A program made the position numbers and the translations under genes. Source: Candidatus Bilamarchaeum sp. (GTDB lineage Archaea > Micrarchaeota > Micrarchaeia > Anstonellales > Bilamarchaeaceae). From it: DNA of 64,000 nt. The stretch spans positions 5,959 to 69,958 of the forward strand of contig DATIFM010000024.1 in assembly GCA_035455205.1 (NCBI GenBank), in the 5' to 3' direction. This document shows, piece after piece, positions 38,348-61,600 of this stretch (position 1 is its first letter; every line of letters starts with the position of its first letter). The notes below the pieces were generated by a model. That model ran no database searches. It had not been told where the DNA came from and saw nothing but the letters and a program-made list of their open reading frames with translations.

Positions 38348-38451
38348 CAATCCATTTATATTTCTTTCCGCACACAATTCTTTAGGTAAGAAAAGTCCAG
38401 TGTCATTCAGGTAATCCTGCTCATCCCGGGGGATGGTAAGGAACCGGTACG

Positions 38452-41400
38452 ATGACCAGCGAAACTCGAAATCAGGAAAAAAAGGGGGCAGAGGGAGGCC
38501 AATCGCTTTCTCCGGCCCTTTCCCGCGCGAGGACTTTCAGCAGGCATTTCCGTCTTGTGGAATCCATTCTCCTCAGCGTTAGCTATATTAACGCCATTGG
38601 CCAGAATCAAGCCATGGCGGAGCCGATTCCCAGGCAACTCGATTCAGAAAGGATAAACCAGCTCAACCAGCTTGCCGAACAGGCTTTCGAGGCTTTCCGC
38701 TCGTACGTGATAAGCGGCTCCCAGTCGAGCAAGGACAAGTTCCTGCGCATCTGGAACGCCAACAAGGATGACGACGCGTTCTTCAACCGCTTCCAGGCAG
38801 GCATCACCGGGAGCCCGGAGGTTTTCCGCACGCTCCTCAACGCGTACAAGGCGCAGAAGGGCGGATACCCCTCGCCGGAGGAATTCATCGCCGCCATCCA
38901 GGCGTGCTATGCCGAGCTGCTGCGCCCGAGGAGCGAAAGGAACGTTTCGCAGATCACGCAGGACTACGGCCCGGCATTCGTGGCCGAGCTGGACCGGATG
39001 GTCACCGCCCGCTCAGTGCCGGTCCGCGTCCCGACGCAGGTCGATGACAGCACGATAAACGCGTTCCTCAACATGCTGCAGGTCAGCGGGACGAGGCCGA
39101 ACGCCCCGGCGCAGGAGCGCCTGCAGTTCATCATTGATGCAATCGACCAGCAGTTCGCCCTCCACAGCCGCGAGAACGCCTCAGGCATAGCGCAGGCCCT
39201 GCTCTATGCATATACGCTCATGAATGCCGAGGACCGCTCCCGCTTCTCCACCTGGCTCCGGACGATGAAGAGCGCCGACCGCACGGCCCTCGCGAACCAG
39301 ATAGTGACTTCCGTGGCGTCGAGGCAGATACGCCTTCCCTACGAACTCGTGCGGACTTCGTTCGAGGCATGGAAGCAGAACACCGAGAGGCAGAGGGCCG
39401 AAGTGGCGCGCCTCGAGGCCGAGCTGAGGCTCTATCCGCCGCATATCCGCGAGGGGACTCTCATTTCCCTGTCGCACTCGTTCGCGCAGGCGCCGACCGA
39501 CTATGCCCTCGAGAACATCGGGAGGCGCGTGGAATATGTCCGCAAAAGGATTGACATGCTTACGATGATGGCGACGCCACAGAGCAGGCAGCAGGCAGAG
39601 CAGCTCCGCGAGGAGCTCGGCCTGCTCACCACGTGGCTGGGCGGCCTCGGCATAACCGCGACAAGGCCCGAGGACGGCCTCAGCCGCCTCGCGGCAGGAA
39701 TCAACGCGCTCCAGAACTTCTACTATGCGATGAACCCCGAGCGCCCCGAGCTTGCCGACTACCTTTCGGCAGTCCAGTCGAACGGGACGCTTTCGGCAAT
39801 CTACCGTCGCTTCATACTCGCCGTGGATGCGCGCACTTCGAGGATATTTTCCGGCCTAAATGCCGACTCGCCCACCTTCGTTGTCCAGATGCAGGAGCGC
39901 ATTTCCAGCCGGGTGAGCGCGGCGCGCGTCCGGCGCGGGCAGGCGCAGTGGAACTCGGATTACTACCCGCTCCTCTCGCCCCTTTTTGCCCCCCCGCCCA
40001 CGACTTCCGGTGCGGTCCCGTCGAGCACATCATTCGACGCGCAGATGTACAACCGGACGTCCACGCTGGAGCCCCTGCTTGCGGTCGCGTTCCTCGATTA
40101 CCTCGAGGTCGCCGCCCGGAACGGCCTCACGGGCGCCCAGGAGCACCGGATTGTAGCGGCCACGGTGTCCCGCCTCTACGCGGTCAACCCGCTCCTCGTG
40201 GTGAAATATTTCGCGGCAGCAAAGAACCTCGCCACTATCTGCGAGGACAATTCCGAGGCGTTCCTCCGGGCGCTCACGGACATAGCCGCGAGGATATCGG
40301 TCGAGGCGGCCCCTGTCATATCCGGGGTTTCCCCCACGCAGATACTCCCGCTGAACGTCCGCCGCATCATCACGCGCCTCGCAAGCTCGATGGAAGCGAT
40401 AGCGCAGATTCCGAGGAGCTCGGTTGCCCAGTACGACCGGCTCAACCTCCTTGACGAGCGCCTCCAGATACAGCCGTACGCGCCGCACTCGATTGAGCAG
40501 AGGCCCTCAGGCTACATGCCGAACCTCCTTGTGAACCCGAACCAGCCCGCGACGCTCCTTCCGCCGTACCCGTTCCCGCAGTACCTCGTGACGCCCACGC
40601 CGACTTCGCCATTCACGGCAGGCGGGCTGTTCACTTCCCCGCCGACATACTCGGGCAACATCACGCTCCCGACTTTCTCGCCCATCGAGGTCTTCACCGG
40701 CGCGGCCTCGGTCGGAACTTCGATGCGCTATTACCTGAATCCCGAGCACCCCGTGGTCTCGATTTCGCAGTACCTTCCGGGCGTGAACATAAACGGCCTT
40801 AGCATGACGAGGCTCCTCAACGAGATACAGCGCGCCTTCATCCCGACGGACCGCCCCGACTACAGCAGGCAGATAATTTCCGGCGGAGGCGCGGGCGGGG
40901 TTATGGGCACGAAGCCCTCGGAAACCGACCCGTGGAATGTGGGCGGCGCCGGAATGGGGACGCTCATCACGCCTACGGGCGGGGCCTCGCTCGGCGGAGG
41001 GCGGCAGGACACGACGACTTTCGGAGGGCTCTCTGCGGTCGCGGTCCCGGTAGGCATCCCCGTGCTCGGCGGCCCATCGGCCGGCAGGAAAGTCACCGGC
41101 ATAGACAGCGCTGTCGCGGGAGTGCAGAGGCTGGACGACGGGACGCAGCAGGTCCTCCTAAGCGCAGTCCAGACCATGTGGGACCCGAACAACCCCAGCC
41201 AGATGCTCCTCTCGCTCAACCAGCAGCAGGATGCCCTCGGGACGAAATACATGACCGCGCGTTACTTCTTCATCGACAAGCAGGGCACGATTTTCGAGCT
41301 AAAGGGCGGGCAGAACGACCTCGTGGACGTGCTGAATTTCGCCGCGGGCTACGCCGACAACCTGTTCATGACGCCGACCACGAGCGCCTGGAACTACGAG

Positions 41401-43548
41401 CCCACGATACAGCGTGGAGGAGGCGTCCTCGCCGTAGATATCGGCAAGAGCCCATTCCTCGTGCACGCCCAGGCCGTGCCGTTCTTCCTCCCCGAGGGAA
41501 CCCCCCAGCCTTTCCTCCTCGAGTGGACAGGCGCGGGCGCGACCACGGTGGAAAACGCGTCGCCGCGCAGGACGACGATTTTCGAGGTCGGCCTCCCGGG
41601 CAAGATAATGCGCTTCCAGAACCCGATAGACCCCACGAGGACGGACAACTTCACGATGCAGGAAGTGGACTTCATGCTCAGGCGCGTGCAGAGGCCCGAC
41701 GCATGGGAGCTCAGAGTCGGCGGGGGCGGCGCGCAGACGCCCGTCGGCCCGGCGGCCAAGGGGGGAATATTCATAAGGACGCAGAGGCTGGAGCCGCCCA
41801 AGTCGTGGTTCGGCGGCGGCGCCTTCTACGAGGGCGGGGCGACGAACATGCAGGCAATCGCTCTCCTTTCCCAGTCTGCCGACGCCGCGGCTTACATCGA
41901 AAGCCTGCACCGCATCGGGGCGACTCTCTACGGGAGCCGTGAGAACTCGGACCGCCTCCTCGTGGGAGCGCTCGCCCATGTCGTTGCCCAGCTCCGCCAG
42001 GATGCGACGACAGACCCTGCGACCGGGCAGGTGACGCTCGGAAAGCTCAGGTACGACCAGACGTTCTACCGGTTCGTCGGCCTCCTCATCGGGCTGCGGA
42101 ACGCCGCGCGCCTCGACGTCGGGCGGTATTCCGGGCTCGACCAGATGATAAACGACTACCAGGCCATGGCGTCGCAGGTCGCGAACGACCCGTCGCAGGC
42201 GGCGGCGCTCACCCAGCAGTTCCAGGCGACTTACGCATCGCTGCTCCAGCAGGTCTTCGACAACTACCAGCTCGGCATCCAGATTAACCGCGACTTCTCG
42301 CTCGAGGCGACGCTCCTCATGCGCGAGCAGGCGAACAAGTGGACCGACCAGGTGCCTGACACGATTTCCGGGCGCGTCCTCTTCACGTGGAGCACAGGCT
42401 TCTGGCGCGCGTTCGCCTCGGTCCCGCTCCTTGGAGGGAGCACTTTCGGCTCTGCCGGAGCCCAGAGCCCCCTCGGGTATGTGCCGCCCGTACAGACCTC
42501 CACCACAACCACCGGGACCACGGGAACTGTGGCCCCTGTTACAACTGCCCCCCCGACGAGCGCGGGCATCATCGGAACCGGCCTCGGGGTGGACCTCGTG
42601 AACGACGTCTTCATGCAGAGGGCCGCGGCGGATGTCGGCCTCCTCGTTGCAAGGTATGAAGTTGCGCAGGCTGCAACGACCACCACGACCGGGGCCCCGC
42701 CTACGACCGGAGTCACATCCCCCACCGCGCCTACAGTGACAAACGCCCTCACCCCCGTCCAGCCCTGGTTCAAGGCGGGCTGGTTCGTGCAGGGCGCGGT
42801 CAGAATCTTCTCGAACGTGATGGAGGACTCCAACCAGTACCGGCGCCTCGTCACCGACTACGAAGGATACCTCGAGCGCATCCGCGACGGGCGCACCGAC
42901 GACATCACCGAAGCCGTGCGTTCGAAGATGTGCGACGCGATAGACACGAGCGCGTTCCCCCCCGAACTCGTACGGCGTATACGCTCCGGAGCGAGGGTTA
43001 CCCTCACGGCCGACCAGACGAGGCAGCTCGAGAGGGCACTCTGGAACGGCTGGTTCTACGACCGGAAATTCGAAGTCCAGCGCAAGTTCAACGGCCACCT
43101 CCGCGCGTTCCTTGCGGCGAGCGGATACGTTTACAACGACCGCACCTACTGGGACATAGGCACTTTCATCGAGAGCGTCGACCGCTTCAAGGCATACCTG
43201 ATAACCGCCCAGCGCGAGGAGCTCGGCGTGTTCGCGGGTGCCGAGGTCACCTCCGGGCGCGTGCGCGTCGCGGCCATGGGAGGCGGAACGAAAAGCGGAT
43301 TCGGGGCGGCCGCGTCAATCGGCTACAAAATTGGCACCCACACTGTCCCGGTAGAGATCGGCCTCTCGGGCTACGGGCGGAGCGCGGTCATACCGGATTA
43401 CTCCGCGCCATTCTTCATACCCCCCCAGCGCACGGGGACGCCGGAATTCGGCTCGCTGTTCTTCTACACCATCGGGAGCACGCGGGGAGTGTCGGGCCTG
43501 GCGCCGCCGAACCCGAACATCGCCCCCCCGATGAGATACAATTATTAG
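38452..43548 (+). CDS. giant protein A (1698 aa), predicted exported; paralogue of B; no recognised domain family
   Basis: - 5.1-kb uninterrupted frame with balanced composition.
- Leader ending 'NQAMA|EP'.
- 'AFRSYVISG' module, Gly-rich core and Thr-rich linkers.
- Beta-rich C-terminus ending 'PPMRYNY'. Confidence 0.88.
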   Translation: MTSETRNQEKKGAEGGQSLSPALSRARTFSRHFRLVESILLSVSYINAIGQNQAMAEPIPRQLDSERINQLNQLAEQAFEAFRSYVISGSQSSKDKFLRIWNANKDDDAFFNRFQAGITGSPEVFRTLLNAYKAQKGGYPSPEEFIAAIQACYAELLRPRSERNVSQITQDYGPAFVAELDRMVTARSVPVRVPTQVDDSTINAFLNMLQVSGTRPNAPAQERLQFIIDAIDQQFALHSRENASGIAQALLYAYTLMNAEDRSRFSTWLRTMKSADRTALANQIVTSVASRQIRLPYELVRTSFEAWKQNTERQRAEVARLEAELRLYPPHIREGTLISLSHSFAQAPTDYALENIGRRVEYVRKRIDMLTMMATPQSRQQAEQLREELGLLTTWLGGLGITATRPEDGLSRLAAGINALQNFYYAMNPERPELADYLSAVQSNGTLSAIYRRFILAVDARTSRIFSGLNADSPTFVVQMQERISSRVSAARVRRGQAQWNSDYYPLLSPLFAPPPTTSGAVPSSTSFDAQMYNRTSTLEPLLAVAFLDYLEVAARNGLTGAQEHRIVAATVSRLYAVNPLLVVKYFAAAKNLATICEDNSEAFLRALTDIAARISVEAAPVISGVSPTQILPLNVRRIITRLASSMEAIAQIPRSSVAQYDRLNLLDERLQIQPYAPHSIEQRPSGYMPNLLVNPNQPATLLPPYPFPQYLVTPTPTSPFTAGGLFTSPPTYSGNITLPTFSPIEVFTGAASVGTSMRYYLNPEHPVVSISQYLPGVNINGLSMTRLLNEIQRAFIPTDRPDYSRQIISGGGAGGVMGTKPSETDPWNVGGAGMGTLITPTGGASLGGGRQDTTTFGGLSAVAVPVGIPVLGGPSAGRKVTGIDSAVAGVQRLDDGTQQVLLSAVQTMWDPNNPSQMLLSLNQQQDALGTKYMTARYFFIDKQGTIFELKGGQNDLVDVLNFAAGYADNLFMTPTTSAWNYEPTIQRGGGVLAVDIGKSPFLVHAQAVPFFLPEGTPQPFLLEWTGAGATTVENASPRRTTIFEVGLPGKIMRFQNPIDPTRTDNFTMQEVDFMLRRVQRPDAWELRVGGGGAQTPVGPAAKGGIFIRTQRLEPPKSWFGGGAFYEGGATNMQAIALLSQSADAAAYIESLHRIGATLYGSRENSDRLLVGALAHVVAQLRQDATTDPATGQVTLGKLRYDQTFYRFVGLLIGLRNAARLDVGRYSGLDQMINDYQAMASQVANDPSQAAALTQQFQATYASLLQQVFDNYQLGIQINRDFSLEATLLMREQANKWTDQVPDTISGRVLFTWSTGFWRAFASVPLLGGSTFGSAGAQSPLGYVPPVQTSTTTTGTTGTVAPVTTAPPTSAGIIGTGLGVDLVNDVFMQRAAADVGLLVARYEVAQAATTTTTGAPPTTGVTSPTAPTVTNALTPVQPWFKAGWFVQGAVRIFSNVMEDSNQYRRLVTDYEGYLERIRDGRTDDITEAVRSKMCDAIDTSAFPPELVRRIRSGARVTLTADQTRQLERALWNGWFYDRKFEVQRKFNGHLRAFLAASGYVYNDRTYWDIGTFIESVDRFKAYLITAQREELGVFAGAEVTSGRVRVAAMGGGTKSGFGAAASIGYKIGTHTVPVEIGLSGYGRSAVIPDYSAPFFIPPQRTGTPEFGSLFFYTIGSTRGVSGLAPPNPNIAPPMRYNY

Positions 43549-50600: not shown

Positions 50601-53090
50601 GAGGTCGCCCTCGTACCTTCTTGCCCTCGACTCGATCTCGGCCCTGCGCGCGAGCGCGGCTTCCGGAGCTATCGATGGCACTGTGCCGGCCTGCCTCACG
50701 GCGACCGGTGCAGTGAATATGGTGCCGAGCGAGTCCCTCGCGTCCGCCTGCGCGATGCCGCCCCTGCTCGAGGCCTGCCTCGCGCGCGCAACCGCGTAAA
50801 CGAACTGCACCGGAGTGTATGGATAGAACCTGCCGCGGAGCGCCCTCGCGTATTCGTCTGTCCTGTCGACGAGCTCGCGCTCGATATCGGCCTGGCTCCC
50901 GGAGAGCCACTGGAGGTTGCTCCTGTTGGTCTGCACGTACTGGACGAGCTCTGCCCCGTATGCTGCCTCGAGCCTCGAGCGGTCGGCGCTCGGGCGTCCG
51001 AGCTCGGCGTAAATGTCGCGGAGGGCCGCTGAAAGCGTGCCGACGCTGAAGCCGAACGTCCTCGTGATAGACCTGACCGTCTGGTCGCTTCCCATCCTCG
51101 ATGTCATCTGGCTCTCTATGTCCTCCACCGGGCGCAGCAGCCAGCTGAACCCGTCGAGGTTGCGCGATACGTGGTCGAACAGCTCCTGCCCGTAATTCTG
51201 AACGAGCTGCTGGCGCCTTGCGCGGAGTGCCTGTATCTCCGTGTATGCCCTCGAAAGGACCGCGCCGCCGTTTGTCGGCACTCTCGCGCGGAGCGAAACC
51301 GCTATCGGGTCCGGCGTCCTTCCGCCGGCCCTCCTGTCCAGCTCGCGCTGGACGTCCGCAGGCGTGCCTGCGAGCCATCCCAATGAGTCGAAATTCGCCT
51401 CGATGATGTCGAGCGGGGCGTCCGCGAGCGCCCTCCTCCTGACTCTCTCGTCTACGAGCGCGGAATACGTTTCCGAGACCGCCCTGCTCATCGGCGGGGG
51501 CCTGTCCGTTCCCTGGACGTTGGGAAGCCTTATCCTCGAAAGCCCGGCCGCCGTCGGGTCCTCGAGCCTCGCCCTCCGCGTTATCTCGGTGCTGATGTCG
51601 GCCTCGGGGCGCAGCAGCCAGCTGAGGTTCCTCATGTTCTGCTGGACGAGAGTCACGAGAGCGCTGTCATAATCCGAATTGAGCCTGGTCATGTTCGGGC
51701 TCTGCCTGCTCAATTCGACGTAGATGTCGCGGAGCGCGATGGGGAGGATATTCCGCTGGTAGCTCCTCGAGAGCGATAAAAGCGTCCTGTTCTGCGTGAT
51801 TTCCTGCGTGTAGAGCCTCTGGAACTCGGTCCAGAAGACGGTGTTGTTCTCGACTGTCGGGACCGAGAGAGTCCCGTTCGTGACCATCGCCAGCCTGCCG
51901 CCCAGAATCTGCGAGAAGTTGTCCGCGGCGCTCTGGCTTCCAGTGGAAAGTACGTCGCGCACGAGGCGCACCGCCCGCCCTGCCATTCCGCGCGCCACTA
52001 TCTGGAGCAGCGGGTCCACGACGTCCGCTCCCTCGCGGTCCCTCAGCCTCTGAATCTCGTCGACATTTCCGCTCTGCGCCGCGCGGTAGATGTCGCTCAC
52101 CGCCCGGGCGAACTCGTTCGGGTCCGTCCCGTGGTGGCGCGTGTTGTAGGCCTGCGCCACCGTCGCGAGGCCTGAGCCGCTGTCGCGGAATATCCTCGCT
52201 GTGAATTCCCTCGTGAATGCGGTAGTGAAAGTCTGGGACGTGTTCGCGTCGAAAATCCCCCTGAAGGCGTCCATCATCTGGGTGTCGCCGCTCAGCATGA
52301 ATTCCCGCAGGAACACGACCGACCTCCTTGCGAGCTCGTTCGGCATGTTCTCGGACACGACCTGCGTGAGCCTCTCGCCGTACCTCGCGACGGTCTCCTC
52401 CCTCGCGGTCCTTTCGAGCTCGGTGCGCGCGGCATCCTCTATGGACATGCCGCCCGTGACCGACTGCCTCATCCTCGCGAGGTCGGAGTCGCGCTGGGGC
52501 TCGCGCCTCCCGAGGTCGCGGTACCTTTGCGCCAGAGCCTGCACCCTCTCGTCCGATGCCGTCGCGGTCTGGAGCCTCGAGCGGACATTGAACACCGCCT
52601 CGATGAAGTCCGTCATCACCACGGGCTCCATCTGCACTCCCCATATGCGGTCGCGGTCCCTCGTGTAAGCGTCGAGATAAACCCTGAACTGCCTGTTTCC
52701 TGAGAGCGAGTCCATCTGGCTGAACAATTCGCTCATGAATTCGCGGTTCTCGCTGAGGCCGACCCCCCTGTACTGGCGGTTGTAGATTTCCCAGAAACGC
52801 GTCCTGTTCGCGGGGTCCCCGCTGATGACATAATCCCTGAAGGCGTTCGCAGCTTCCCTCGCCTGTCTTTGCAGTCCCTGTACATCCTCCCGTTCAGCTG
52901 GTGGTCGCGGCTGTGCCATAGCAACACTTCCTCCGAGATTGTTTAAATTCGTTCCGCTCGTTAACGTCAGGATTCCGGCGACAGCCGATGCTGTGAACTC
53001 GTTGAAGTATCTCCTGAAAACCGAGCGCCTCCTCAACTCGAAGCTGCTGCGGCGCTCGTGTTCGGTCTCTTTCTGCCTCTGGCCGGACAT
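44688..53090 (-). CDS. giant protein B (2800 aa), predicted exported; paralogue of A; internal ~55-aa repeats
   Basis: - 8.4-kb uninterrupted frame; ATG preceded by GGAGGAG.
- Leader ending 'SVAMA|QP'.
- Three 'FR(D/E)(Y/F)(V/M)(I/L)SG' modules and nine ~55-aa repeats.
- Beta-rich C-terminus ending 'MLYGQFQW'. Confidence 0.88.
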   Translation of the reverse strand: MSGQRQKETEHERRSSFELRRRSVFRRYFNEFTASAVAGILTLTSGTNLNNLGGSVAMAQPRPPAEREDVQGLQRQAREAANAFRDYVISGDPANRTRFWEIYNRQYRGVGLSENREFMSELFSQMDSLSGNRQFRVYLDAYTRDRDRIWGVQMEPVVMTDFIEAVFNVRSRLQTATASDERVQALAQRYRDLGRREPQRDSDLARMRQSVTGGMSIEDAARTELERTAREETVARYGERLTQVVSENMPNELARRSVVFLREFMLSGDTQMMDAFRGIFDANTSQTFTTAFTREFTARIFRDSGSGLATVAQAYNTRHHGTDPNEFARAVSDIYRAAQSGNVDEIQRLRDREGADVVDPLLQIVARGMAGRAVRLVRDVLSTGSQSAADNFSQILGGRLAMVTNGTLSVPTVENNTVFWTEFQRLYTQEITQNRTLLSLSRSYQRNILPIALRDIYVELSRQSPNMTRLNSDYDSALVTLVQQNMRNLSWLLRPEADISTEITRRARLEDPTAAGLSRIRLPNVQGTDRPPPMSRAVSETYSALVDERVRRRALADAPLDIIEANFDSLGWLAGTPADVQRELDRRAGGRTPDPIAVSLRARVPTNGGAVLSRAYTEIQALRARRQQLVQNYGQELFDHVSRNLDGFSWLLRPVEDIESQMTSRMGSDQTVRSITRTFGFSVGTLSAALRDIYAELGRPSADRSRLEAAYGAELVQYVQTNRSNLQWLSGSQADIERELVDRTDEYARALRGRFYPYTPVQFVYAVARARQASSRGGIAQADARDSLGTIFTAPVAVRQAGTVPSIAPEAALARRAEIESRARRYEGDLENLRGQLRHSAMEPVRPLLERWITEWSRRNQDIRLRAAETSDPGELQRLVDEQQRLMDQMLSPADLRRSVEMAFAMIHLAETGGDLARAPPGATTSGTDQGTMNTLLTWYRGMSRFPEKQQVVGDVVSAVLRRADSNLYDMIVSMDEPNFFAGVQRTYTFTQRRGTDTRAVLVGLYGERFVSLMERQAPNFRFLDSPSITVRDLRQGENALYAGIVIRCYRAITNPQPGEDRETMVALFGADFVAAVEAQRANLTALGTSGANVEDVLRLPQAVRSAITAAYPGAYSRTVLALQRAYRRQDDAMFRDMGQVYAVLRTRPARGAQRADLENFEQRLNELRGAYGRAFVDRVSANMTQLGFLESPSARLDDMLALPAPLLEQLNAGYEAGPGAGRATFMTNFGFMADNLPRIFGTLRSSLGLASATDTLGTNFTQAVTLYRQLFGSNDYLFNQYINLPLFSQRLRELARRYRGIDLPAWAADGIDSPEELARFFNSEAGRQLIQRGREFYNQVETEYLQARQDANFHPTTGDYTDAAVTGLRQNLSILDALYMGIAIPEIGGGASAFNRRAAQAMMNSILIISQRDPYLVGPYLTQVLPAFIAASHDERTLVAAMEAFNAIFVQRYESGLREIAYSTLLNRQYFLRVFQAIGDRLPEIVSSFDHNQLEDELRLVPEPRTDEGYLDPRLYRYRPGWWNGEGLDPLPQLYGQQGGFPSLLPRPFSDTRLRLPVPGGLSVLSGADDLFSRMYDGLRPPAARMFRQRVPPQYRIGTLGPSTIIRRINELFGPMPINYSDYWLSAFGEAGFMYGAEGSGTAVTQRGGLGAAAGGRTLSGGARGLGTWQRASTAAGPEGNRQTTTTDQVDVTGQAAGLPYPVAGVIPIGGADEARGIIRHRNEFHYERADTRTDTTQTPGGPTTTTDTVTRERTAGLLETYSRIARQNSTDMLLFVTGEHLPELRDAGGNVVQQPRDALRSRLYFVTAEGNIYQLAYGFDSNAQLLNYLYGGVNTQQVLAGARTVGRGMLSGDSAAGGFDGAAVGFTVPRTGGDSFSALALGQLVRNMSTMDPVHIEQAVGTAVTDLVRDRRARDVYAAFYRGAQLTTVDPADRTHISDVRWATATGELMWRRMRIDPMEHQMELRVVGGAQRSRDGATPIVGARWRHEIPQSRYRRVGYGLAGAYNDIDLLREFRAVDTQADQIYARMHTVLASFYHWSEDDARDTGYLVAGSYMYARMEDWTVRDPTSPTGYRQEASGPGGNPEQHFASAMFMYWAQRHGILVGAQRVPGFSRLYERIDQAMLEIQRNPANEAQILQNLSRSLRDDLNRDIWRFSIAYGYDGERLRAYVVGAGQWTGDQTSYGNLYALFLFGRPTRWYADIMSHAYGYSPLVISENPGTTGGFEVNRGQYRPYVDLYTGFGILDWPSIDLQRYERTATVRRTVTQGDALRNIYRDLGSTAFDRQRLARVYGREAVDSVLAARDGLSWAIRPESEVTAELTRRRGQDDAVATQILNLRRSGAASAVIDIFTELRRASPDRARLERQYTRDLVDLVERRSTDLDWILLPQDRLERELGTRGQRSGSAENRIAGASITQPPARADVTGPELQRIFEQNMLDVLVSVTNSDSRIGLSPERYDVLLGTHLASPEGRTQRRTTYYVLHTPVADRPEARGSLVIGDDDDYAEWQQQGHTIGRGVTRVEVRQDGDQYSLVCSGDRRLRALTAVRFMGGVTLPLTGSGLDIWNPAGNWSVGGLLQVLQDHRHDLLAGAFYGVREYGNERWDQWTITLSHRFQAINTATMSDQLFSYVFFNRATRQVVFASDSVFNNPDELSRVCQTLSGGQCSDLGTLSRTTGGAGITWARADLVAGDRMAVHFFFEGGAEQRREFTSTTVGGTTSPAGERTDFIGRAGISWEYTRQPRTSILPQRYQLTGTAYTGSWPVLPGETSRPEALPSWRDQIRTFPGGWGFMLYGQFQW
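45879..46277 (-). repeat. B repeat copies R8-R9 (protein-level ~55-aa repeat)
   Basis: 'ALRNIYRDLGSTAFDRQRLARVYGREAVDSVLAARDGLSWAIRPESEVTAELTRRR' and 'AVIDIFTELRRASPDRARLERQYTRDLVDLVERRSTDLDWILLPQDRLERELGTR'. Confidence 0.8.
49476..51743 (-). repeat. B repeat copies R1-R7 (protein-level ~55-aa repeat array, aa ~450-1205)
   Basis: Examples are 'ALRDIYVELSRQSPNMTRLNSDYDSALVTLVQQNMRNLSWLLRPEADISTEITRR' and 'ALRDIYAELGRPSADRSRLEAAYGAELVQYVQTNRSNLQWLSGSQADIERELVDR'. Five further, more divergent copies follow the same pattern. Confidence 0.8.
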
Positions 53091-53095
53091 GGAAA

Positions 53096-53102
53096 CTCCT
53101 CC
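53096..53102 (-). promoter_or_regulatory. Shine-Dalgarno-like GGAGGAG 5 nt upstream of the giant gene B start
   Basis: The minus strand reads GCAGGAGGAGTTTCC-ATG. Confidence 0.45.
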
Positions 53103-53246
53103 TGCGGAGGCAGAAAGCCATTCCCCCCATCCTTTATGGCCCCCGATTTTTCTCTTTCTAACACTCGTCTCTCTGCATTTATTCTGTCGGGAAAGAAATA
53201 AAAAGAGGTGTCACAGTTAATGGCGCAGGATGATACACCGGAGCCT

Positions 53247-55619
53247 TCAGCCCGGCTGTATGACGCGCCTTCTCGAGCCCGGCTGGGGCTCGACCTGCGT
53301 CGGCGGCGGCTCCTGCCTCTGCTGCGGAGGAGCCTGCGGCCTGATGTTGATGGACTGGCCCCAGTCCCCGACGTTCGCGTTCGGGTTCGCCATCCTCCAT
53401 GAGTAGACTGCCATCGCGGCAAGGAGCCTCGGGTCCGTTACGCCGGTCGGGTCGTAGTCGTCCCTGCCCATGCTGAAGCCCTGCCTGTAGAGGAGCGCCA
53501 AATCCTGCCTGAGCCTCGTGTAGACGTCGCCGCTCCTCTGCGCCTCCTGGTTGATGAAGCGGGCCATCGCCCTCATCACCACCCGCCTGTCGGCCTCGGA
53601 AGTTGTCCCGCTGAGGCGCGTTGATTCGCGCGCGACTCCGGTGAAGTCCGAGTTGTCGCGGCAGAACTGGAGGAATGCGGTGTTCGAGTGGAGGTAGTCG
53701 TTGAAGACCCTGTCGAACGCGTCCCTGATGTCCGTGCGGTTCAGCGCTCGGAGCGCGTCCTCGATTGAAGAGTATCCCTGCGGGAGGTTGCGCATTATCG
53801 TGACAATCCCGGCCGGCCTGCCTCCCTGCACGTTCTGGTAGAGCTCGGTCGCGAGGTTGCGCCAGTTCCTGTCGGCAAAATCCTGGAGCGCGCTCCTCGA
53901 TTCGGCCGCGCCTATCGTCCTTCCGAAGGCTGCCTGCGCCACCTGCCTCGCGATGACGTCCCTTCCGGCGTCGCTCGGGTGCAGGTGGTCGGGGTCGGTC
54001 TCCCTCTCGTACTGGGCCCTGAGCCTCGGCGGGTTGCCCTCGCCGATTAGCGCGGCCGTGTCAATGAAAACTACGTTCCCGTCCGCAGTCGCCTGCTCCC
54101 TGAGCCACTGGTTGAACTGCGTCGTCCTGCGCTGGAGGTCCGAAGTGGAGGTGGACGCGCCGGCCCACGGGAGGAGCCCGAGTATGACAACGCGCATGTT
54201 CCCGTCCCTCGCTGCGCGGATGAACTGGGCGTACCTGCCTTCGAGCTGCTCGACCGTCCCGCTCCCTATCCCGTTCACTCCCGCGTGTATCACGACAACG
54301 TTGTAGGGCGGCTGGTGGCCAAGGACGTCCCGGTTGAACCTGCTCCGCACGTGCGAGAGGTCCTCCCCGGAGACCCCGTAGGAATCCACGGCCGCGTCCG
54401 GAGTCGCCCCCGCGCCCTCGCGCAAAAGCCTCTGCAATGTGGTCCCTATCCTGTTGCCGGCTATGAGCGAGTCTCCCACGACGGCAACGCGAGGCACTGT
54501 TACTGTCGGGGCCTGAGGCTGGACCGGCGCGGCGGTCCCCTCGAGGGGAACCACCTGCGGCGCTGCCCACTGGTCTATCTGGCCATCTTCCCTTCCCCGG
54601 CCGCGCTCCGGATGCTCCTGCGTCCATCTCCTTATGTAGAGCGAAGACGCGGTGACGGTGTCTGCGTCCATCGCGCCGCCGAGGTTCATGGATATGAATG
54701 CGAATCGCGTCCTTTCATCCGGCTGCCTGCCTGAAGTCGCGGTGAACGTCCGCGCCTCATGTATGCGCGCCCTCACCCTTTCGGCGTTCGGAAGCTGTGC
54801 GACTTCGGCCCTGTACCTTGCGTTCGCGTCGTTCGGCGCGACGAAGCCGAGCAGGAAATACCTGACGTACATGTCCGCCGCGCGGATTATTTCGGCGTTC
54901 GCCTGCTCGCTCAGCATCTCCGGCCTCCCCGGCTCGGTGAGGAACGACTGGAGCTGAACGAACTGCGGGAAGTATTCGGCCTGCGTCGCGGCCACCGATG
55001 AAAGGTAGAGCCTGAACGCGGGAATCTGGTAGAGCGAGTTGAATACCGCTATCGTCGTGTCCCGCTGGTTGGCGGTCCTCAATGTGCCCCTCTGCAAATC
55101 CGACGAAAGGTACTGGTTGAGGAATTCCCTGTTGGTGTGGAGCGTGGAAGCAGCGGCGACCGAGCGGCGCTCGTCCCTCGCGGCTTCGCGGAGCTGGAGC
55201 GTGACCCACGGAATCACTTCAGTCGCCTGCGTCGGGAAAGTGCGCCTCGGCGTGGCTGCGCGCACGTCGCGCCCTCTCCCCTCGTCGCGGCGCTCCTCCC
55301 TTCTTTCCCTCCTCGGGGGTGGCTCGCGCCTCGCAGGCTCGTCGCGCCTCTCTTCCCTCCGCTGGGGCTGGGCAGGCTGCGCCTCCGGATTGAGCTGGCG
55401 GTAAATCGTCCTCGCGGCTCCGTTCACGTCGGTCCGTCCGACGTCAATCCCTGCGCCGTCGAAGAAGTTGCGGACGTTGGCGAGGGCGGCGTTAATCGCG
55501 CCGCGTATGTCCGCCTCGGACATCCCTGCCCGCACCGACACTCCGGACGACCTGGAAGTGCCTCCGGCCACTATGACTATCGTGTTTCCCTGAAGCCGAA
55601 CTTCTGCCATGTTTTTCAC
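53247..55619 (-). CDS. 790-aa multidomain protein C with a central SGNH/GDSL hydrolase domain
   Basis: - SGNH blocks: I 'VAVVGDSLIAGN', II 'SYGVSGED', III 'VIHAGVNG', V 'DPDHLHPSDAG' (aa ~376-566).
- Arg/Glu-rich spacer at aa 80-125.
- Flanking helical modules related to A and B.
- The start is either GTG 55619, overlapping the D stop, or ATG 55610. Confidence 0.85.
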   Translation of the reverse strand: MKNMAEVRLQGNTIVIVAGGTSRSSGVSVRAGMSEADIRGAINAALANVRNFFDGAGIDVGRTDVNGAARTIYRQLNPEAQPAQPQRREERRDEPARREPPPRRERREERRDEGRGRDVRAATPRRTFPTQATEVIPWVTLQLREAARDERRSVAAASTLHTNREFLNQYLSSDLQRGTLRTANQRDTTIAVFNSLYQIPAFRLYLSSVAATQAEYFPQFVQLQSFLTEPGRPEMLSEQANAEIIRAADMYVRYFLLGFVAPNDANARYRAEVAQLPNAERVRARIHEARTFTATSGRQPDERTRFAFISMNLGGAMDADTVTASSLYIRRWTQEHPERGRGREDGQIDQWAAPQVVPLEGTAAPVQPQAPTVTVPRVAVVGDSLIAGNRIGTTLQRLLREGAGATPDAAVDSYGVSGEDLSHVRSRFNRDVLGHQPPYNVVVIHAGVNGIGSGTVEQLEGRYAQFIRAARDGNMRVVILGLLPWAGASTSTSDLQRRTTQFNQWLREQATADGNVVFIDTAALIGEGNPPRLRAQYERETDPDHLHPSDAGRDVIARQVAQAAFGRTIGAAESRSALQDFADRNWRNLATELYQNVQGGRPAGIVTIMRNLPQGYSSIEDALRALNRTDIRDAFDRVFNDYLHSNTAFLQFCRDNSDFTGVARESTRLSGTTSEADRRVVMRAMARFINQEAQRSGDVYTRLRQDLALLYRQGFSMGRDDYDPTGVTDPRLLAAMAVYSWRMANPNANVGDWGQSINIRPQAPPQQRQEPPPTQVEPQPGSRRRVIQPG

Positions 55620-58600
55620 CGCGGGGGCTGTGCTGCCTGACGCCTCCTATTTGTGTATTCTATTATATAATTCTGCAGTGCCTCGCCGGTGGTCCTCATG
55701 TTCGGGATTTCCACGCGGAGCGTCGGGCCCGTGCCCGAAACGGTTATTCCCCAGGACTGCCTGAGCCTCACCTCGACCGGGTTGGTGCTCGTGAGGAACC
55801 TGTAAATCTCAGCATCAATCTGGCTGATTGCTTCAGGAGGGACGACTATCTGGTTGCCTGAGTCCAGCGTAGGGATGCCGAAGACCGCGCTCAGCCTGCC
55901 GCCGTCGCTCGTCGCGCTGCTGTAGCTGACCGTGCCGTTCCGTATCGTGGCCCCGGTCTGGAACATCCTCATCAGCCTTCCCTCGATTGCAGCCCCAAGG
56001 CCCGCGGCCCTGTCGCTCTCGTAGAACTGCCTCGCCTCCTGCGTCAATTGGGGCGGAGCCTGCACCTGCGTGTCGGCCGGCGCCTCAACGCGGTCCTGCG
56101 GTGCCATCTCGAAGCCGGGCTGCCTCGGGTTCCTCTGGACCGCGCGGTCGCGAAGGAGGTCTTCCCTCGAGCGCTCCCTCTGCCCGCCGGGCCCTCCGCC
56201 CGGAGTGCCCGCCCGCCTTCTCGCGTCCTCCTCGGCCTGCTGCCTCTCGGCAGGGGTCGGCCCCCTCCACCAGCCGCTCGTCCTGAACGTCTCGACCTGC
56301 TGGGTGGCATAGTTCTCGATGTCTGTCGGGCTCATCGCAGATGCCTGCGCGTTCTGCGAAAGCGATATTATTATCGCCGAAAGGTTGACTATCTGCGTCC
56401 TGTGCCTCGTGAGCCACTGCCTCAGGCCGTGCTGGTCGTCGGAATGGCTGCGCACGAACTGCACTAGCGGCGCCGCGCTCGTTGATGAGAGGAGCGAGCG
56501 GTCTATGTCGCCCAATATCCTCGGGCCGACGAACCCCCTTTCCCTCGCCCTCGCAAGCGCGGTGTCCGGGTTCTCCACAATCAGCCTCGCGAGGGCCTCG
56601 GCGTCGCCGTAAATGGCCTCGCCGTTCTCGCCCTCCATGAGGTTGAAGCGGTTGAATGCGCGGAGCGCGTCCTGGTTTTCCCTGTATGTCGAGAGTATCC
56701 TCTCGAAAACAGGCCTGAACGTCGCGTCCTGCGATGCGCGGACGTCGAGGATTCCAAGGAACGAGTTCTGCCTGATGCCCTCGACCTGCCCCCGGACGCC
56801 TGCCGGCACCTCGAAGAAGAGGTGCTCGCGCACCAGCGTGTCGCGGAGCTGCGAGTCGAGCGTCGTCGTCCCAGTCACCCTGCTCCTGATTCCGGCGAGC
56901 ACCCCGTCCCTCTGGAGGACCGCGAGCGCGTCGTCGATGTAGTTGATGGGTATCGTCCCCTGCTGGACTCCCTGCCAGAGGAACACGAACACGTCCGTGT
57001 TCTGCGAAAGGAAGCCCGCGGCCCCCTGTCCCCTCTGCACGCTGATTCCGCAGTCGCTGAGGAACGTCTCGATGACGAAATCCCTGAACCTGAGCGCGAT
57101 TCCCCTTGCGACCCAGTCGTCCATCCTCAATTCGGCCATGTCCGTTATGTCGAGCGACGTTTTGTTCTTCCTCGCAAGGAGCCTGTCGACTGCGTCGCGG
57201 GTTATGTGGAAGCCGGTGAGTATCTCGTTCAGCCTCCGCGTTGCGTCCGCGGCGCCGTCCCCTCCAGCCCTGCTCGTCGTAAGGAGCGAGTTGATGTCGC
57301 CAAGCCTCGCGGACATCGCCCTGCCGTCGGAAAGGACGTCATCGAGCCTGCTCGGATCGATGAGAATCTCGTTGCGCTCTAGCGCCCTGCGCAGGTCCTG
57401 CACGTTGCCCGGCGGCTGGTATGTGTACGGGAACAGGTTCGGGAGGTAGTCGAAGAACGTCCTTCCGTTCCCCGCCTCGCGGACGAACCTCGCGTTCTCC
57501 TCGCTGATGCTCACTCCCCATCTCCTGCGGACTTCCTCGCGCCCCTGCTGGACCGTGCCGGAGCCTGTGAGCGCTTCCCGGATTCCGGGCCACGCGTAGC
57601 GCGAGAGCGCCCAGAACTCGGCGCCCCAGATTATCATCTGGAGGCCGATTCTTCCGTAGCCGCCCATCCTTCCGACCGACAGCGCCGATTCGCCCATCGC
57701 CGGGTTGCGGAGGATTTCCCTTCCCTGCTGCATGAACCTGTACTGTCCCCTTATGGGAATCTCGTAGAAAAGTCCGCGGAGCGCGCGCCTCGCGAAGCTT
57801 CCCTGCCACCATTCGGCTACGGCCTGCGGCGCGGTCCTCGTGGCCTGCCTGCCGACCATTCCCGCGCTGTCCATCGCCTCGCCGGCGATTGTCATCACCC
57901 TCTGGTCGAGCGCGGAGAGCACCGCGAAATGGTCCGAGAGCGATGTCCTTGCGGCCCTCGCGAAATTGGCGACGCCCGCTCCTGTCTCGCCCGGAATCTC
58001 GAGCTGGTTGAGCCTTGCAATCACGTCGTCGAGGCTGCCGCCGAGGACCGCCTGCCTGTACGAGTCGGCAGCCCTCTGGCCGTACCTTGCGCGCACGGCG
58101 CCGAACATGTCCTCGCTCCTTAGCACTCCGAGTACCGCGTCCTCTGCCGTCCCGCCTGCGCCTACCGACCTCTCGACGCCCTGCGCCATGGCCTGCACGA
58201 CCGGGTTTTCGGCTGTCGGAATCGCGCGGACCGCGCCTATCGCGGCCCGGCCGGTATCGACATATGCGCCGACGACCGCATCGTTCGGAACCACCCCTGT
58301 TTCGTTGAGCCTGAGCACCGCCTGTATCGTTTCAGGTGAGTATGTGGTCCCGGGCGGGAGTATTTCCTGCCCCACGAGCGTGCCGCCGCCCGAGGCGAAG
58401 CTCGTGCCGAGCATCCTCTGCGTGGTCGCAAGGGGCGCGTTGGCCGGGTTCCTCACGAATGAAGTGTAGCCGTCGAGCTGGCTCCTCGCGGTCGCAAGGT
58501 CTGATTCGAGCGACTCGACCCTCGCCTGCGCGCGCGTCTGGGCCCTGCCCGTGGCCGCCTGGGCCGCCCTTCTCTGGGCGGCTATCTGCTCCTGGAGCTG

Positions 58601-61600
58601 GGGAATCCTCGTCGACTCGAGCTGGTCTATCCTCGCGCGGACGTCCCGCATCGAAAGGAAGTTCCTCGGGTTTGTCGGGTCCCTCATGCCCACGTTCTTC
58701 TCAATGCCCTCTATGATGAGAAGCACTTCGTCGCTCCCCATCGGCTGCCTCGTAAGAACTTCCCGCAGGCCTGATGTCGAAAGGCCCCTTGCCCTCGCCG
58801 CGCTCGTGAGCGCCGTGTCCGCGCCCCTCATCACCCTCGCGAGCTGGGCATCCCCCTGCGCCATCTCGGTGAATGCCGCCCGGACATTCGGGTGCGACAT
58901 GATCCTTATTATCGCCCTCCAGGCGATTTCCTGCTGTGCCCTCGGCGTCTGGCGGCTCGTCGCGGTCTCGTAGAGCCCCTTCACTATGTTCGCTAGCCTC
59001 GTCGGTGCGCTCCTCACGAATGCGCCGACTTCGGCCTGCCCGTTCGCGGGCGCGGAAACTTCGGCCGCGGCCGCTATCTGGTCCATCATCCCCTGCGGAG
59101 CGACCGAGCCTATAGTGTCCTCCATTCCCCTCCTTGCCGTGGAAACGAAATCTTCTGGAACCGTCGTCGCTTCGCCCCTTGCGCTCCTGGCGGCGCGGTA
59201 CTGCCTCCAGCGCATCGATATGGAGCGCCCCCATAACGTGAGCCGGCCCGGAATCCTGCCCTGCTCTCCCGGATAAAGAAGGGTGTTCGGGTCCATCTCC
59301 CTTGGCGCAGGCTGGGGCGCTTCCCTCGGCTGCTGCTGGGGCTGGGCCTCCTGAGGCGGAGCCTGCTGGCGCGGGCCCTGCCTCGGGACACTTCCCCTCG
59401 GCGACGGGGCACCCGTGTCCCCGCCTTCCCCGCCCGGCCTCACTACGGGCGGGACGACTACTGGCGGCGGGCCCTGCCCTTCGCCTCCCCCGGATGCGCG
59501 TATCGGCGGCATCCTTCCGCCGCCGAACTGCGGCTGCGGGTTGGGAACTTCCTGCGGAACTATTTCCGGCTGGAGCGCGAGCGCGCCATCGACCTGCGCC
59601 GCGTACTGCCCGAACGCCTGCTGCTCCGCGGCGACGACGTCCGGCGGTATTATGTCCGCGAGGCGCCCCGTGGCCGTGCGGATTGCGCCGAGCGTCGCGC
59701 GCTGGGTGAATGGCGTGCTTTGCCCGCCCCCCAGTTCCTGGGAGAGGCTCGGGTTGTTGAGCAATGCGTCTATCACCGTGCCCGCATCTGGGTGCGCCGA
59801 GCGTATCGATGATAGCCTCGCCCTCGCCGCAGCCCTCTGCGCGAGCGCGGGCTGGGCTGCCGTATCGGGTATGAGAAGGTCCGAAAGGAATCCCCTTAGC
59901 CCTTCGGGGTTGAGCAGGCCCGCGGCGTCTATCTGCGGCCTCGTGCCCCTCGGTCCTCCGCCCGGCCCCTCCGGCGGCGGCATGTCGAATCCCCTAATCG
60001 CCCCTGCAAGCACTTCGTCTATGGCCCGGATGTTTATCGGCATCCTGCCTGCCGCGAGCTCGTCGGCTGCGTTCAGCACGCTGGTGTCCGCCGCGAGCCG
60101 CTCGATTATCGGGCGCATGTGGCGAGGGAGCGAGTTGAGTATCATGTCCCTTGCCGCGGGCGAGGCCCTCGCGAAGCTCCTAAGGAAACGCAGCAGGCTT
60201 CGGGGCTCTGCAATCCCCCTTGCCGCCGCGACCTCCGGAATCTCCGTCGGGCGCACCGTCGGCTGGCCTTCTACCTGCCTCGGTATGACGTTCTCGAGTA
60301 TCTGCGCGGCCTCGATTGTAGCGGCCCTCGCGCGCACCTGCACCCTGTAGTTGCTGTACGCGCTGATTCCTGCGCGGGCCATCATGAAGCCGCCGAACGC
60401 GGCCATGCCGAGGTTGAGTATGCCTTCCTCGGTCCTGCCGGCGCGGAGCGCCTGTATGCCGGTGTATGTCCCGTAGCCCATCATGCCGACGCCTATCGTG
60501 AGGTTCGTCACGTTCGCGATTGTCGCCGCGGTCCTGAATCCAGTTGCGAGCCTGCCGGCGGTCATCACCTCGCTTGCGACCCTGAACCCTGCGCCAAGGC
60601 CGCCAAGGCCGAGCGTGCCGACCGTGAGGCCGAGCATCACCCACGCCTCGGTGGATGCGTGGCCGTTCACGCGGATTTCCATCTGCACCCTGTCGACGGC
60701 GAGGTACGTGAATATCGCGCCGCTTATTGCCCAGCCTATTTTCGGTATGAACATCGCCGCGATGCCCACGCCTATCATCGTGTACATTTCGACTTTGCGG
60801 TCGTGCTCGTACCTCTGCCTCATCCACTCGAGGTCGCGCTCGGCCATCTGGAAATATCCGTCGGTCAGCTGCCTTCCGGCTTCGCCTCCGTATCCCTGCG
60901 AAACTATGCCGCGCATGTGCGCGCGCATCTCCCTCTGGCGGGGCGCGTAGTCCGTGAGAAGCATGCTCCTCACTTCCCCGGCGGGCGCGGCGAAAGTGGA
61001 AACCTCGGTAATCGCAAGCGCCCTCGCGACATCCTGCAGGCGCTGGCTTGTGAACTCGCTCGACGCGCTGGTGTTGAGGACCGCCCTCCTCCCTCCGTCC
61101 GCGTCAACGAACCCGTCCCTGTGCCCGGTAAGCAGCTGGCTGAAGACCTCGCACGAGCCGGTCCTGTAGAACTCGAACTCCTGCGTCGCGTACTGCGCGC
61201 GCAGCACCGGGAAGAACCTCAGGTCCAGGCCGGTCGGCGAAATGTCCGTGGCCCGGGGCCGCGGGAGCGGCACGAGCCTAACTACGTCGCCCATGTCGAC
61301 CTGGTCTATAGTCGGGCTGTCCTCTGCCCTGTAGAATATGAGCGCCTCCATCTTCTGGCTGACTGCATTCCTGTACTCCTGGTATGCGCCTTCCAGGTCG
61401 CCGGAAAGAAGAAGCGCCCTCGCGTTGGAGTAGTGGTTGCCCGCGTCAACGAGGTGGCGTGCGATGCCTGCGGCGCGGTCGCTCCGCTCGGAGGCCACCG
61501 CCCTCCTGAACTGCTCGTTGCTGTCTATCTGCTGGTTCAGGTATGCAAGCGTCTGGCCGATGCGGCTCTCCCTGTTGAGGTCCGAGAGTATCTGGCCGTA

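Follow-up and report, generated by a model that had tools for sequence, protein, structure and literature searches.

A signal-like leader with a candidate embedded promoter and start codon at the head of two giant proteins of a Candidatus Bilamarchaeum sp.

Two giant genes, A and B, lie within a 64,000-nucleotide (nt) stretch of DNA from Candidatus Bilamarchaeum sp. (GenBank assembly GCA_035455205.1, contig DATIFM010000024.1, positions 5,959 to 69,958 of the forward strand), which was analysed at its full length and is referred to here as the window. Their products begin with similar, unusually long leaders that end in the residues A-M-A, and the question raised by this locus is what such a leader does: the original prediction had taken the conservation of its whole length as a sign of a dedicated targeting signal rather than a generic one. 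We think it probable, with some reserve, that the leader is a composite: an extended signal of the general secretory (Sec) type in which a promoter and a start codon are embedded, allowing long and short forms of each protein.

The source organism is a tiny symbiotic archaeon of the Micrarchaeota. The window is part of contig C24 in genome bin G000 (1.39 megabases, 59% guanine plus cytosine [GC], 82% complete). It encodes archaeal FttA, the PolD small subunit, aTrm56 and geranylgeranyl reductase, and the genome is therefore archaeal. The FttA shares 93% identity with that of metagenome-assembled genomes assigned to Candidatus Micrarchaeia, which places the organism among the DPANN archaea.

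The leader shared by genes A and B

The two genes and their leaders are located as follows:

Gene A: 38452-43548, + strand, giant protein of 1698 amino acids (aa) with leader
Gene B: 53090-44688, - strand, giant protein of 2800 aa with leader
Leader of A: 38452..38619, + strand, codons 1-56 of the long form by translation; orthologues P0003 and L002 keep the leader
Leader of B: 52914..53090, - strand, codons 1-59 of the long form by translation; conserved in the genus

These translations agree exactly with the leaders quoted in the original prediction (residues 1-56 of A and 1-59 of B), and both end in A-M-A, followed by E-P in A and by Q-P in B. The B leader comprises an n-region, a hydrophobic core of 12-13 residues and a 15-residue tail ending in A-M-A. 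In a BLASTP comparison of the two proteins, similarity is confined to the N-terminus (32% identity over 102 residues, E 2.8e-8) and exceeds chance. Neither full-length protein matched any family in Pfam (E <= 0.01) or NCBIfam, and the known leader families (ESPR, YSIRK and others) were rejected as candidates on this ground. The public gene call for gene A (P0002, 1644 aa) begins at the internal Met of A-M-A, not at the first ATG.

A profile built from the leader only (A1, 21 sequences) finds the leader in 33 of the 39 genomes of the genus; homologues share kinship, and counts across them, here and below, are not counts of independent events. The leader-bearing open reading frames (ORFs) of the genus always encode either 1578-1984 aa (A-like) or 2793-3113 aa (B-like), with the leader at their head. 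Outside the genus, A1 gives marginal matches only, in 4 of the 22 other genera of the family. When 1.84 billion representative proteins were searched with a second profile (A2), made from the leader and the first domain, only 71 were returned, and the family is therefore narrow. In the window's own genome, a profile search with the n-region alone gave only noise, and a scan of the contigs with the N-terminus of B gave no match. The n-region recurs in a third family of large proteins (family E, described below), and the complete leader, comprising n-region, core and N-I-N...A-M-A end, is present in this genome only on A and B.

The leader has the layout of an export signal on an enlarged scale. 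Among the genus homologues its median length is 57 aa (range 45-83), with changes of length in frame, and the upstream frame is open and starts M-x-G-x-R/K-(L/I) in 31 homologues. The n-region of approximately 30 residues runs from an M-x-G-x-R/K-L start through an acidic or Gly-rich stretch to a basic cluster with Phe (F-x-R), and its net charge is positive (4-14 Lys plus Arg versus 0-8 Asp plus Glu). Over 12 residues, the most hydrophobic window averages 1.1-2.8 on the Kyte-Doolittle scale (median 1.9), and a net-positive n-region is followed by a hydrophobic core of 7-15 residues, as in Sec signals. The leader ends in (A/V/T)-M-(A/S/G/T), mostly followed by Q/E-P; residue +1 is Q, E, G, S or T in all genus homologues, all of which also follow the small-x-small rule at -3/-1 and lack Pro at +1. 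A few distant homologues break the rule, with D or P at -3, or P at -1 or +1. The c-region is longer than the 3-7 or so residues typical of Sec signals cut by signal peptidase I: the modal distance from the core to A-M-A is 15 residues, versus 0-10 in the genome's other candidate signals. Met1 and the Met of A-M-A are the leader's only invariant columns.

Two other readings of the leader's end were tried and rejected. Cleavage just after the core (S-G-S/T) would often place N, M or I at -1, hence no conserved site; and an N-glycosylation sequon in N-I-N-N lacks the S/T at +2. The genome contains SecY and a weak match to archaeal signal peptidase I. Its other candidate signals end in A-x-A followed by Q, and one ends in A-M-A followed by Q.

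Over 12 sequence pairs, the n-region and core (about 45 codons) differ by 0.40, 0.34 and 0.52 per site at the first, second and third codon positions, and the mature part by 0.35, 0.28 and 0.52. By this measure, the first 45 or so residues of the leader evolve like coding sequence, matching the mature part, and the ratio of nonsynonymous to synonymous rates (dN/dS) of the leader is below 1. The leader lies outside the fold that follows: an AlphaFold2 model of B (31-sequence alignment) gives residues 1-66 a predicted local distance difference test score (pLDDT) of about 50, with values above 95 from residue 67 onwards, where a confident helical domain begins. Taken together, these data support a leader that is translated and signal-like, and that goes beyond a generic signal.

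First mature domain of B (residues 67-260): 52311-52892, - strand, predicted all-helical module, pLDDT > 95

A Foldseek comparison of the N-terminal model with the PDB gave no match better than E 0.59. This first mature domain recurs two or three times within B-like proteins.

DNA constraint and a proposed internal start codon at the leader's end

The last 12 or so codons of the leader follow a different pattern. In this c-region the same 12 pairs differ by only 0.14, 0.12 and 0.22 per site at the three codon positions, so that third positions differ by 0.22 per site in the leader tail versus 0.52 elsewhere. Read as DNA, these codons contain ATWTAAA at -29 to -23 and a pyrimidine at -1, and they lead into the ATG. 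Counted back from this invariant ATG, the codons at -10 to -8 are NAT-WTA-AAN in 32/32 genus homologues. Residue -10 may be N, Y, H, D or I, from a codon that invariably ends in AT; the Leu of the box is encoded by TTA in 10/10 cases, a codon that makes up only 0-2% of Leu codons elsewhere in those GC-rich genes; and the codon preceding the ATG ends in C or T in 31/32 homologues. Constraint at all three codon positions, together with fixed rare codons, indicates that N-(I/L)-N...A-M-A is conserved as DNA, not as a peptide targeting motif. The proposal of a dedicated targeting signal is therefore supported for one part of the leader and unsupported for the other: the leader is real, translated, conserved beyond its hydrophobic region, non-generic, and shares its n-region with family E, and its most conserved end is a nucleotide element. 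The elements in question are:

Embedded TATA-like box of B, AATTTAAAC, codons N48-L49-N50: 52941..52949, - strand, -30 to -22 from the internal ATG
Embedded TATA-like box of A, TATATTAAC, codons Y-I-N: 38584..38592, + strand, -30 to -22 from the internal ATG
Invariant internal ATG of B, Met58: 52917..52919, - strand, proposed start of a leaderless mRNA and of the short form, M-A-Q-P
Invariant internal ATG of A, Met55: 38614..38616, + strand, proposed start of the short form, M-A-E-P
GGAGG from Gly-Gly codons of B: 52930..52934, - strand, 15 to 11 nt before the internal ATG

Archaeal promoters consist of a TATA box, an A-rich B recognition element (BRE), and a pyrimidine-purine initiator that overlaps the start codon in leaderless mRNAs (PMC7289017); the rule of a pyrimidine at -1 and a purine at +1 is taken from PMC7289017 and PMC6161675, and the embedded layout of A and B is the published one (PMC7289017, PMC6161675). 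It also corresponds to the habits of this genome. Genome-wide, TATA-like hexamers are sharply concentrated at -30 to -27 relative to the start codon, and an A/T run is found there in approximately 300 of 1214 genes (roughly a quarter to a third, strict counts); a TATA-like box at this distance from an ATG points to a leaderless mRNA. The 16S 3' end, on contig C4, is ...GATCACCTCC, and Shine-Dalgarno sequences before starts, with GGAGG peaking at -12 and GGTGA at -9 genome-wide, occur in a minority of genes. The mRNAs of this genome would thus be mostly leaderless, with Shine-Dalgarno starts in the minority. The embedded boxes of A and B lie within the interval in which the genome's own genes have theirs (about 23-30 nt upstream). 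At the internal start, a pyrimidine stands at -1 and the ATG, as first codon, provides the purine at +1.

A position matrix was trained on the starts of the genome's remaining genes, leaving out A and B. It gives the internal ATG of A a promoter score of 7.6 (72nd percentile of annotated starts) and that of B a score of 9.7 (78th percentile); of 7164 internal in-frame ATGs, only 0.24% and 0.18%, respectively, reach these values. The first ATGs score -15.5 (A) and -5.9 (B). Across 31 homologues the median score is 11.4 for the internal ATG versus -5.1 for the first. The GGAGG before the internal ATG of B lies 3 nt beyond the genome's optimum, and A-type and about half of B-type homologues lack it; it may be either a weak internal Shine-Dalgarno site or just the helix-breaking Gly-Gly of a c-region. 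An internal Shine-Dalgarno sequence (GGAGG/GGGGG at -15) was considered and rejected as the main cause of the invariant Met, being off-optimum and often missing, and is at most a possible minor contributor.

The same box is kept beyond the genus by different amino acids. Positions -10 to -8 of distant homologues read F-I-N, F-L-K, F-K-N, N-K-N or I-K-S, all from A/T-only codons. In other genera for which the DNA was read (genomes G103, G104 and G080), the A/T box is kept with K-F-K-N, F-I-N-N and G-I-K-K-S, and scores are 12-17.7. The G080 homologue has an S-F-A site (followed by Q) between the box and the Met, and this cleavage-type site indicates that the Met is not part of the cleavage site there.

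Some relatives have the start without the leader. An intact G066 homologue (L195, 1755 aa) starts at the internal Met, with no signal-like stretch in any upstream frame; in an intact G076 homologue (L203, 1590 aa), which has no leader, the Met follows a stop codon and then AAGGTGAT. In G018, two A-like paralogues lie in tandem (C10:6801 [L124] and C10:12428 [L021]): L124 has the full leader, and the second, intact copy (L021, 1700 aa) has only the TATA box and the Met. The converse arrangement, a leader with the internal Met missing, is found in another G076 homologue (L204). Furthermore, 11 of the 71 library family members are called from the internal Met, among them P0002, the window's own A. 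The three intact leaderless homologues and the conserved start signals indicate that the Met of A-M-A is the family's start codon and the leader an extension that was gained and lost; most likely, this Met is the conserved ancestral start and the leader was added N-terminally. True starts other than the first ATGs would have refuted the original prediction, and this is half the case, as a second conserved start appears to lie at the Met of A-M-A.

One same-genus paralogue is divergent (L202, G012:C28:6800-7500, 1924 aa): its N-I-N box occupies -15 to -7 relative to a Met, so that the spacing is lost and the score is 1.1, and a second motif, I-M-A-P, follows.

A two-form model and its alternatives

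In the model that we favour, each gene can probably make one version of its protein with an export signal and one without. The long form would be translated from a leadered mRNA made from candidate upstream promoters, in the case of B with a canonical GGAGG at -12:

GGAGG Shine-Dalgarno sequence: 53098..53102, - strand, 12 to 8 nt before the first ATG of B (53088-53090), optimal spacing
Upstream TATA-like box ATTTATATTT: 38354..38363, + strand, 98 nt before the first ATG of A, candidate promoter of the long leadered transcript
Upstream TATA-like box TTTTTATTT: 53196..53204, - strand, 114 nt before the first ATG of B, candidate promoter of the long leadered transcript

Both A and B have TTCTTTCC after the upstream box, about 100 nt before the first ATG, and the distance of the upstream box varies among homologues from about -45 to -160. 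If used, these boxes imply 5' untranslated regions of roughly 70 nt in a mostly leaderless genome. Residues 1 to ~45 of the leader would be a translated extension, built as an extended Sec signal, that directs the long form to Sec, and the long pre-protein would probably be cut after (A/V)-M-(A/S/G), leaving Q/E-P. The last ~12 codons would double as a promoter whose transcript begins, leaderless, at the invariant ATG. The short form, starting M-A-Q/E-P, would have no signal and would either stay unexported or take another route; after removal of its Met it would equal the cleaved long form plus one Ala.

Several points weigh against this model. It is hard to see what role a signal-less form of a giant protein, presumably located at the surface, would have. 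Every genus member has small or aliphatic residues at -3 and -1, on either side of the Met, a protein-level signal-peptidase signature that could add to the conservation, and some 15 residues from the core to A-M-A is long for signal peptidase I. The embedded TATA box is nearly symmetrical, so that an antisense transcript is possible. The starts on which the matrix was trained are crude, being the first ATGs of long ORFs. Lastly, an ordinary signal in the same genome ends in F-A-M-A followed by Q, in GC-rich codons that score -26.6; an A-M-A end without promoter-like DNA means that A-M-A can be a plain cleavage site.

A more far-reaching version of the model, which we put forward only tentatively and consider doubtful, holds that the genus uses a dedicated, promoter-selected two-form system. 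The M-G-G-x-R-L leader would then mark a special export route and the internal start a signal-less form with a separate role or route, and the choice of start would set the destination of a 1700-2800 aa protein, for example at host contact.

A plain extended Sec signal cut after A-M-A, in which the fixed A/T codons serve translational pausing or an mRNA structure that aids targeting of a giant chain, is unlikely, although it has much of the leader's anatomy on its side. The n/h/c architecture is there; (A/V/T)-M-(A/S/G/T) obeys the -3/-1 rule in every genus member; SecY and the weak archaeal signal peptidase I match are present; the genome's other signals end in A-x-A then Q, and one in A-M-A then Q; and the n-region is common to family E. 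Pausing, however, would not explain why bases are fixed while amino acids vary, and ATA is not a rare codon here. A plain signal likewise leaves unexplained the exact match to the position of the genome's TATA peak, the pyrimidine at -1, the homologues that start at the internal Met, and the cleavage-type site that precedes the Met in G080.

At the other extreme, the genes might make the short form only, starting at the internal Met with upstream DNA that is untranslated and open by chance. In most homologues, start signals at the internal ATG are indeed far better than those at the first, gene callers frequently pick it, and leaderless homologues exist. Chance is nevertheless a poor explanation for an upstream frame that is open in 31 homologues with an M-x-G-x-R/K start and lengths that change in frame between 45 and 83 aa. 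Over 498 codons, this frame shows codon periodicity (0.34 at position 2 versus 0.52 at position 3) and a dN/dS below 1; the basic-then-hydrophobic order is kept despite divergence, in a profile similar to the family E leader; and the first ATG of B has GGAGG at optimal spacing. We consider this explanation distinctly improbable.

We have equally little confidence in an uncleaved N-terminal signal anchor that would tether the giant protein to the cell membrane. In its favour, AlphaFold2 models a single helix at residues 17-44, and the tail between core and A-M-A is long for a signal peptidase. The uncharged hydrophobic core, however, has only 12-13 residues versus about 18-20 for a membrane span; the best 19-residue windows are at +3.3 to +9 kcal/mol (Hessa scale, no position weighting), far from a stable helix; and a strict small-x-small site is retained.

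A twin-arginine translocation (Tat) signal, suggested by the long n-region and R-R-x-F in B (R-R-R-S-V-F, with R-R then F in several homologues), is barely credible, as the R-R pair is not conserved (R-A-R in A, K-R-S-R or R-P-S-R in others), Pfam TAT_signal does not match A or B, and TatC was not found in the 82% complete genome of the window and is present in 3/40 genus genomes and 0/16 high-quality ones, versus 33/39 for the leader. Two textbook twin-arginine signals do occur in the window's genome despite TatC not being found there (G000:C8:227233-227953 [+], S-R-R-G-F-L-K; C8:3770-4169 [-], T-R-R-E-F-L).

Family E and comparison with known systems

The n-region of the A and B leaders has a counterpart in a third family of large proteins, family E, represented in the window's genome by one gene:

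Family E protein: G000:C28:34623-38649, - strand (locus L136:625-4650:-), 1341 aa, with an M-G-G-x-R-L extended leader

Family E is present in 26/40 genus genomes and has no Pfam match. Its leader runs M-G-G-x-R-L ... L-N-S ... basic/F ... core ... G-x-x-M-(A/G)-(Q/G)-P ... A-x-A, followed by Q-E. An hhalign comparison of its n-region with that of A and B gives a probability of 88% (E 3.1e-6, 32 columns); this profile similarity indicates that the extended n-region is common to unrelated large proteins. Family E shares with A and B an invariant internal Met, located where the core ends, and GGT-GYT-NNT precedes this ATG in 17/17 sequences, which places GGTG at -9, the optimal, peak position for such a Shine-Dalgarno sequence in the genome. 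No TATA box is found before the internal Met of family E, and promoter scores there are mostly negative (about -7). Family E looks to be another, independent instance of a signal peptide that ends at a start codon; with a TATA-type signal in A and B and a Shine-Dalgarno-type signal in family E, the two families would keep their internal starts by different mechanisms.

Several other genes of the genome were noted alongside these families. Gly/Asp-rich repetitive proteins (G000:C33:22492-23172 [+], C28:26745-27516 [+], C29:3706-4948 [+] and C31:36470-37103 [+]) have lipobox-like signal ends (L-G-A-C, V-S-A-C, P-G-C); the n-regions of some resemble the A/B leader (M-A-P-R-L ... G-Q-S ... F-S-R-F), and the A1 profile matches the C33 protein at E 0.002. 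Within the window, a third giant ORF of about 2958 aa (55616-64000 [-], running to about 64489 beyond the window) begins with M-A-Q-R-Q-G-E-R-R downstream of GAGGTG; it lacks a leader, and BLASTP shows it to be dissimilar to both A and B. Its stop codon is overlapped by the GTG start of a 790-aa SGNH/GDSL hydrolase gene (53247-55619 [-]).

Giant proteins are the main candidates for the attachment of DPANN archaea to their hosts and for the exploitation of those hosts. Where an export signal embeds a conserved promoter and start, it could switch such a protein between exported and non-exported forms, and a second family with the same layout through a different initiation signal suggests selection for two forms. 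The inconsistent start calls in the family (11/71 at the internal Met) also mean that signal peptides of DPANN giant proteins are missed at random. A lesson of method is that peptide "motifs" beside an invariant Met can be DNA signals, the tell-tale signs being fixed rare codons and amino acids that change within A/T-only codons.

Three types of known system can be compared with the leaders of A and B. In common with ESPR (PF13018) and the signals of autotransporters and two-partner secretion (PMC2805444), the leaders are longer than 50 residues, carry an extra conserved segment before the n/h/c regions, are limited to very large secreted proteins, and are common to unrelated passenger families. 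ESPR belongs to type V proteins of diderm bacteria, whereas the genome that encodes A and B is archaeal; the A/B leader has no Pfam match, has the motif M-x-G-x-R/K-L and no second hydrophobic segment, and would hold an embedded start site. With ordinary archaeal Sec signals, which are cut by a Sec11-type signal peptidase I, it shares a positive n-region, a short core, small residues at -3/-1, the presence of SecY and, as in this genome's other candidate signals, Q/E at +1. It differs from them in an n-region of about 30 residues with conserved motifs and in the invariant Met at -2, and from the genome's other candidate signals in a tail of about 15 residues between core and site, versus 0-10.

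For the proposed pair of forms, the classic eukaryotic parallel is yeast invertase SUC2, of which a long mRNA yields the secreted enzyme and a short mRNA the cytoplasmic enzyme. Among archaea, the intraRNAs of Halobacterium salinarum (PMC6161675) are similar: a promoter lies inside the coding region, with the BRE/TATA layout and a pyrimidine at -1, an in-frame ATG stands at the 5' end of the transcript, and the short form lacks the export signal. Internal start sites would remove the export signal in 10 of 103 signal-bearing Halobacterium proteins; only 9% of the internal transcripts are leaderless, and no signal-dropping case was followed up (PMC6161675). The element of A and B is, in contrast, deduced from sequence alone; also unlike the Halobacterium cases, it is conserved at the nucleotide level across the genus and in other genera, lies exactly at the end of the signal, and is found within proteins of 1700-3100 aa of a DPANN archaeon.

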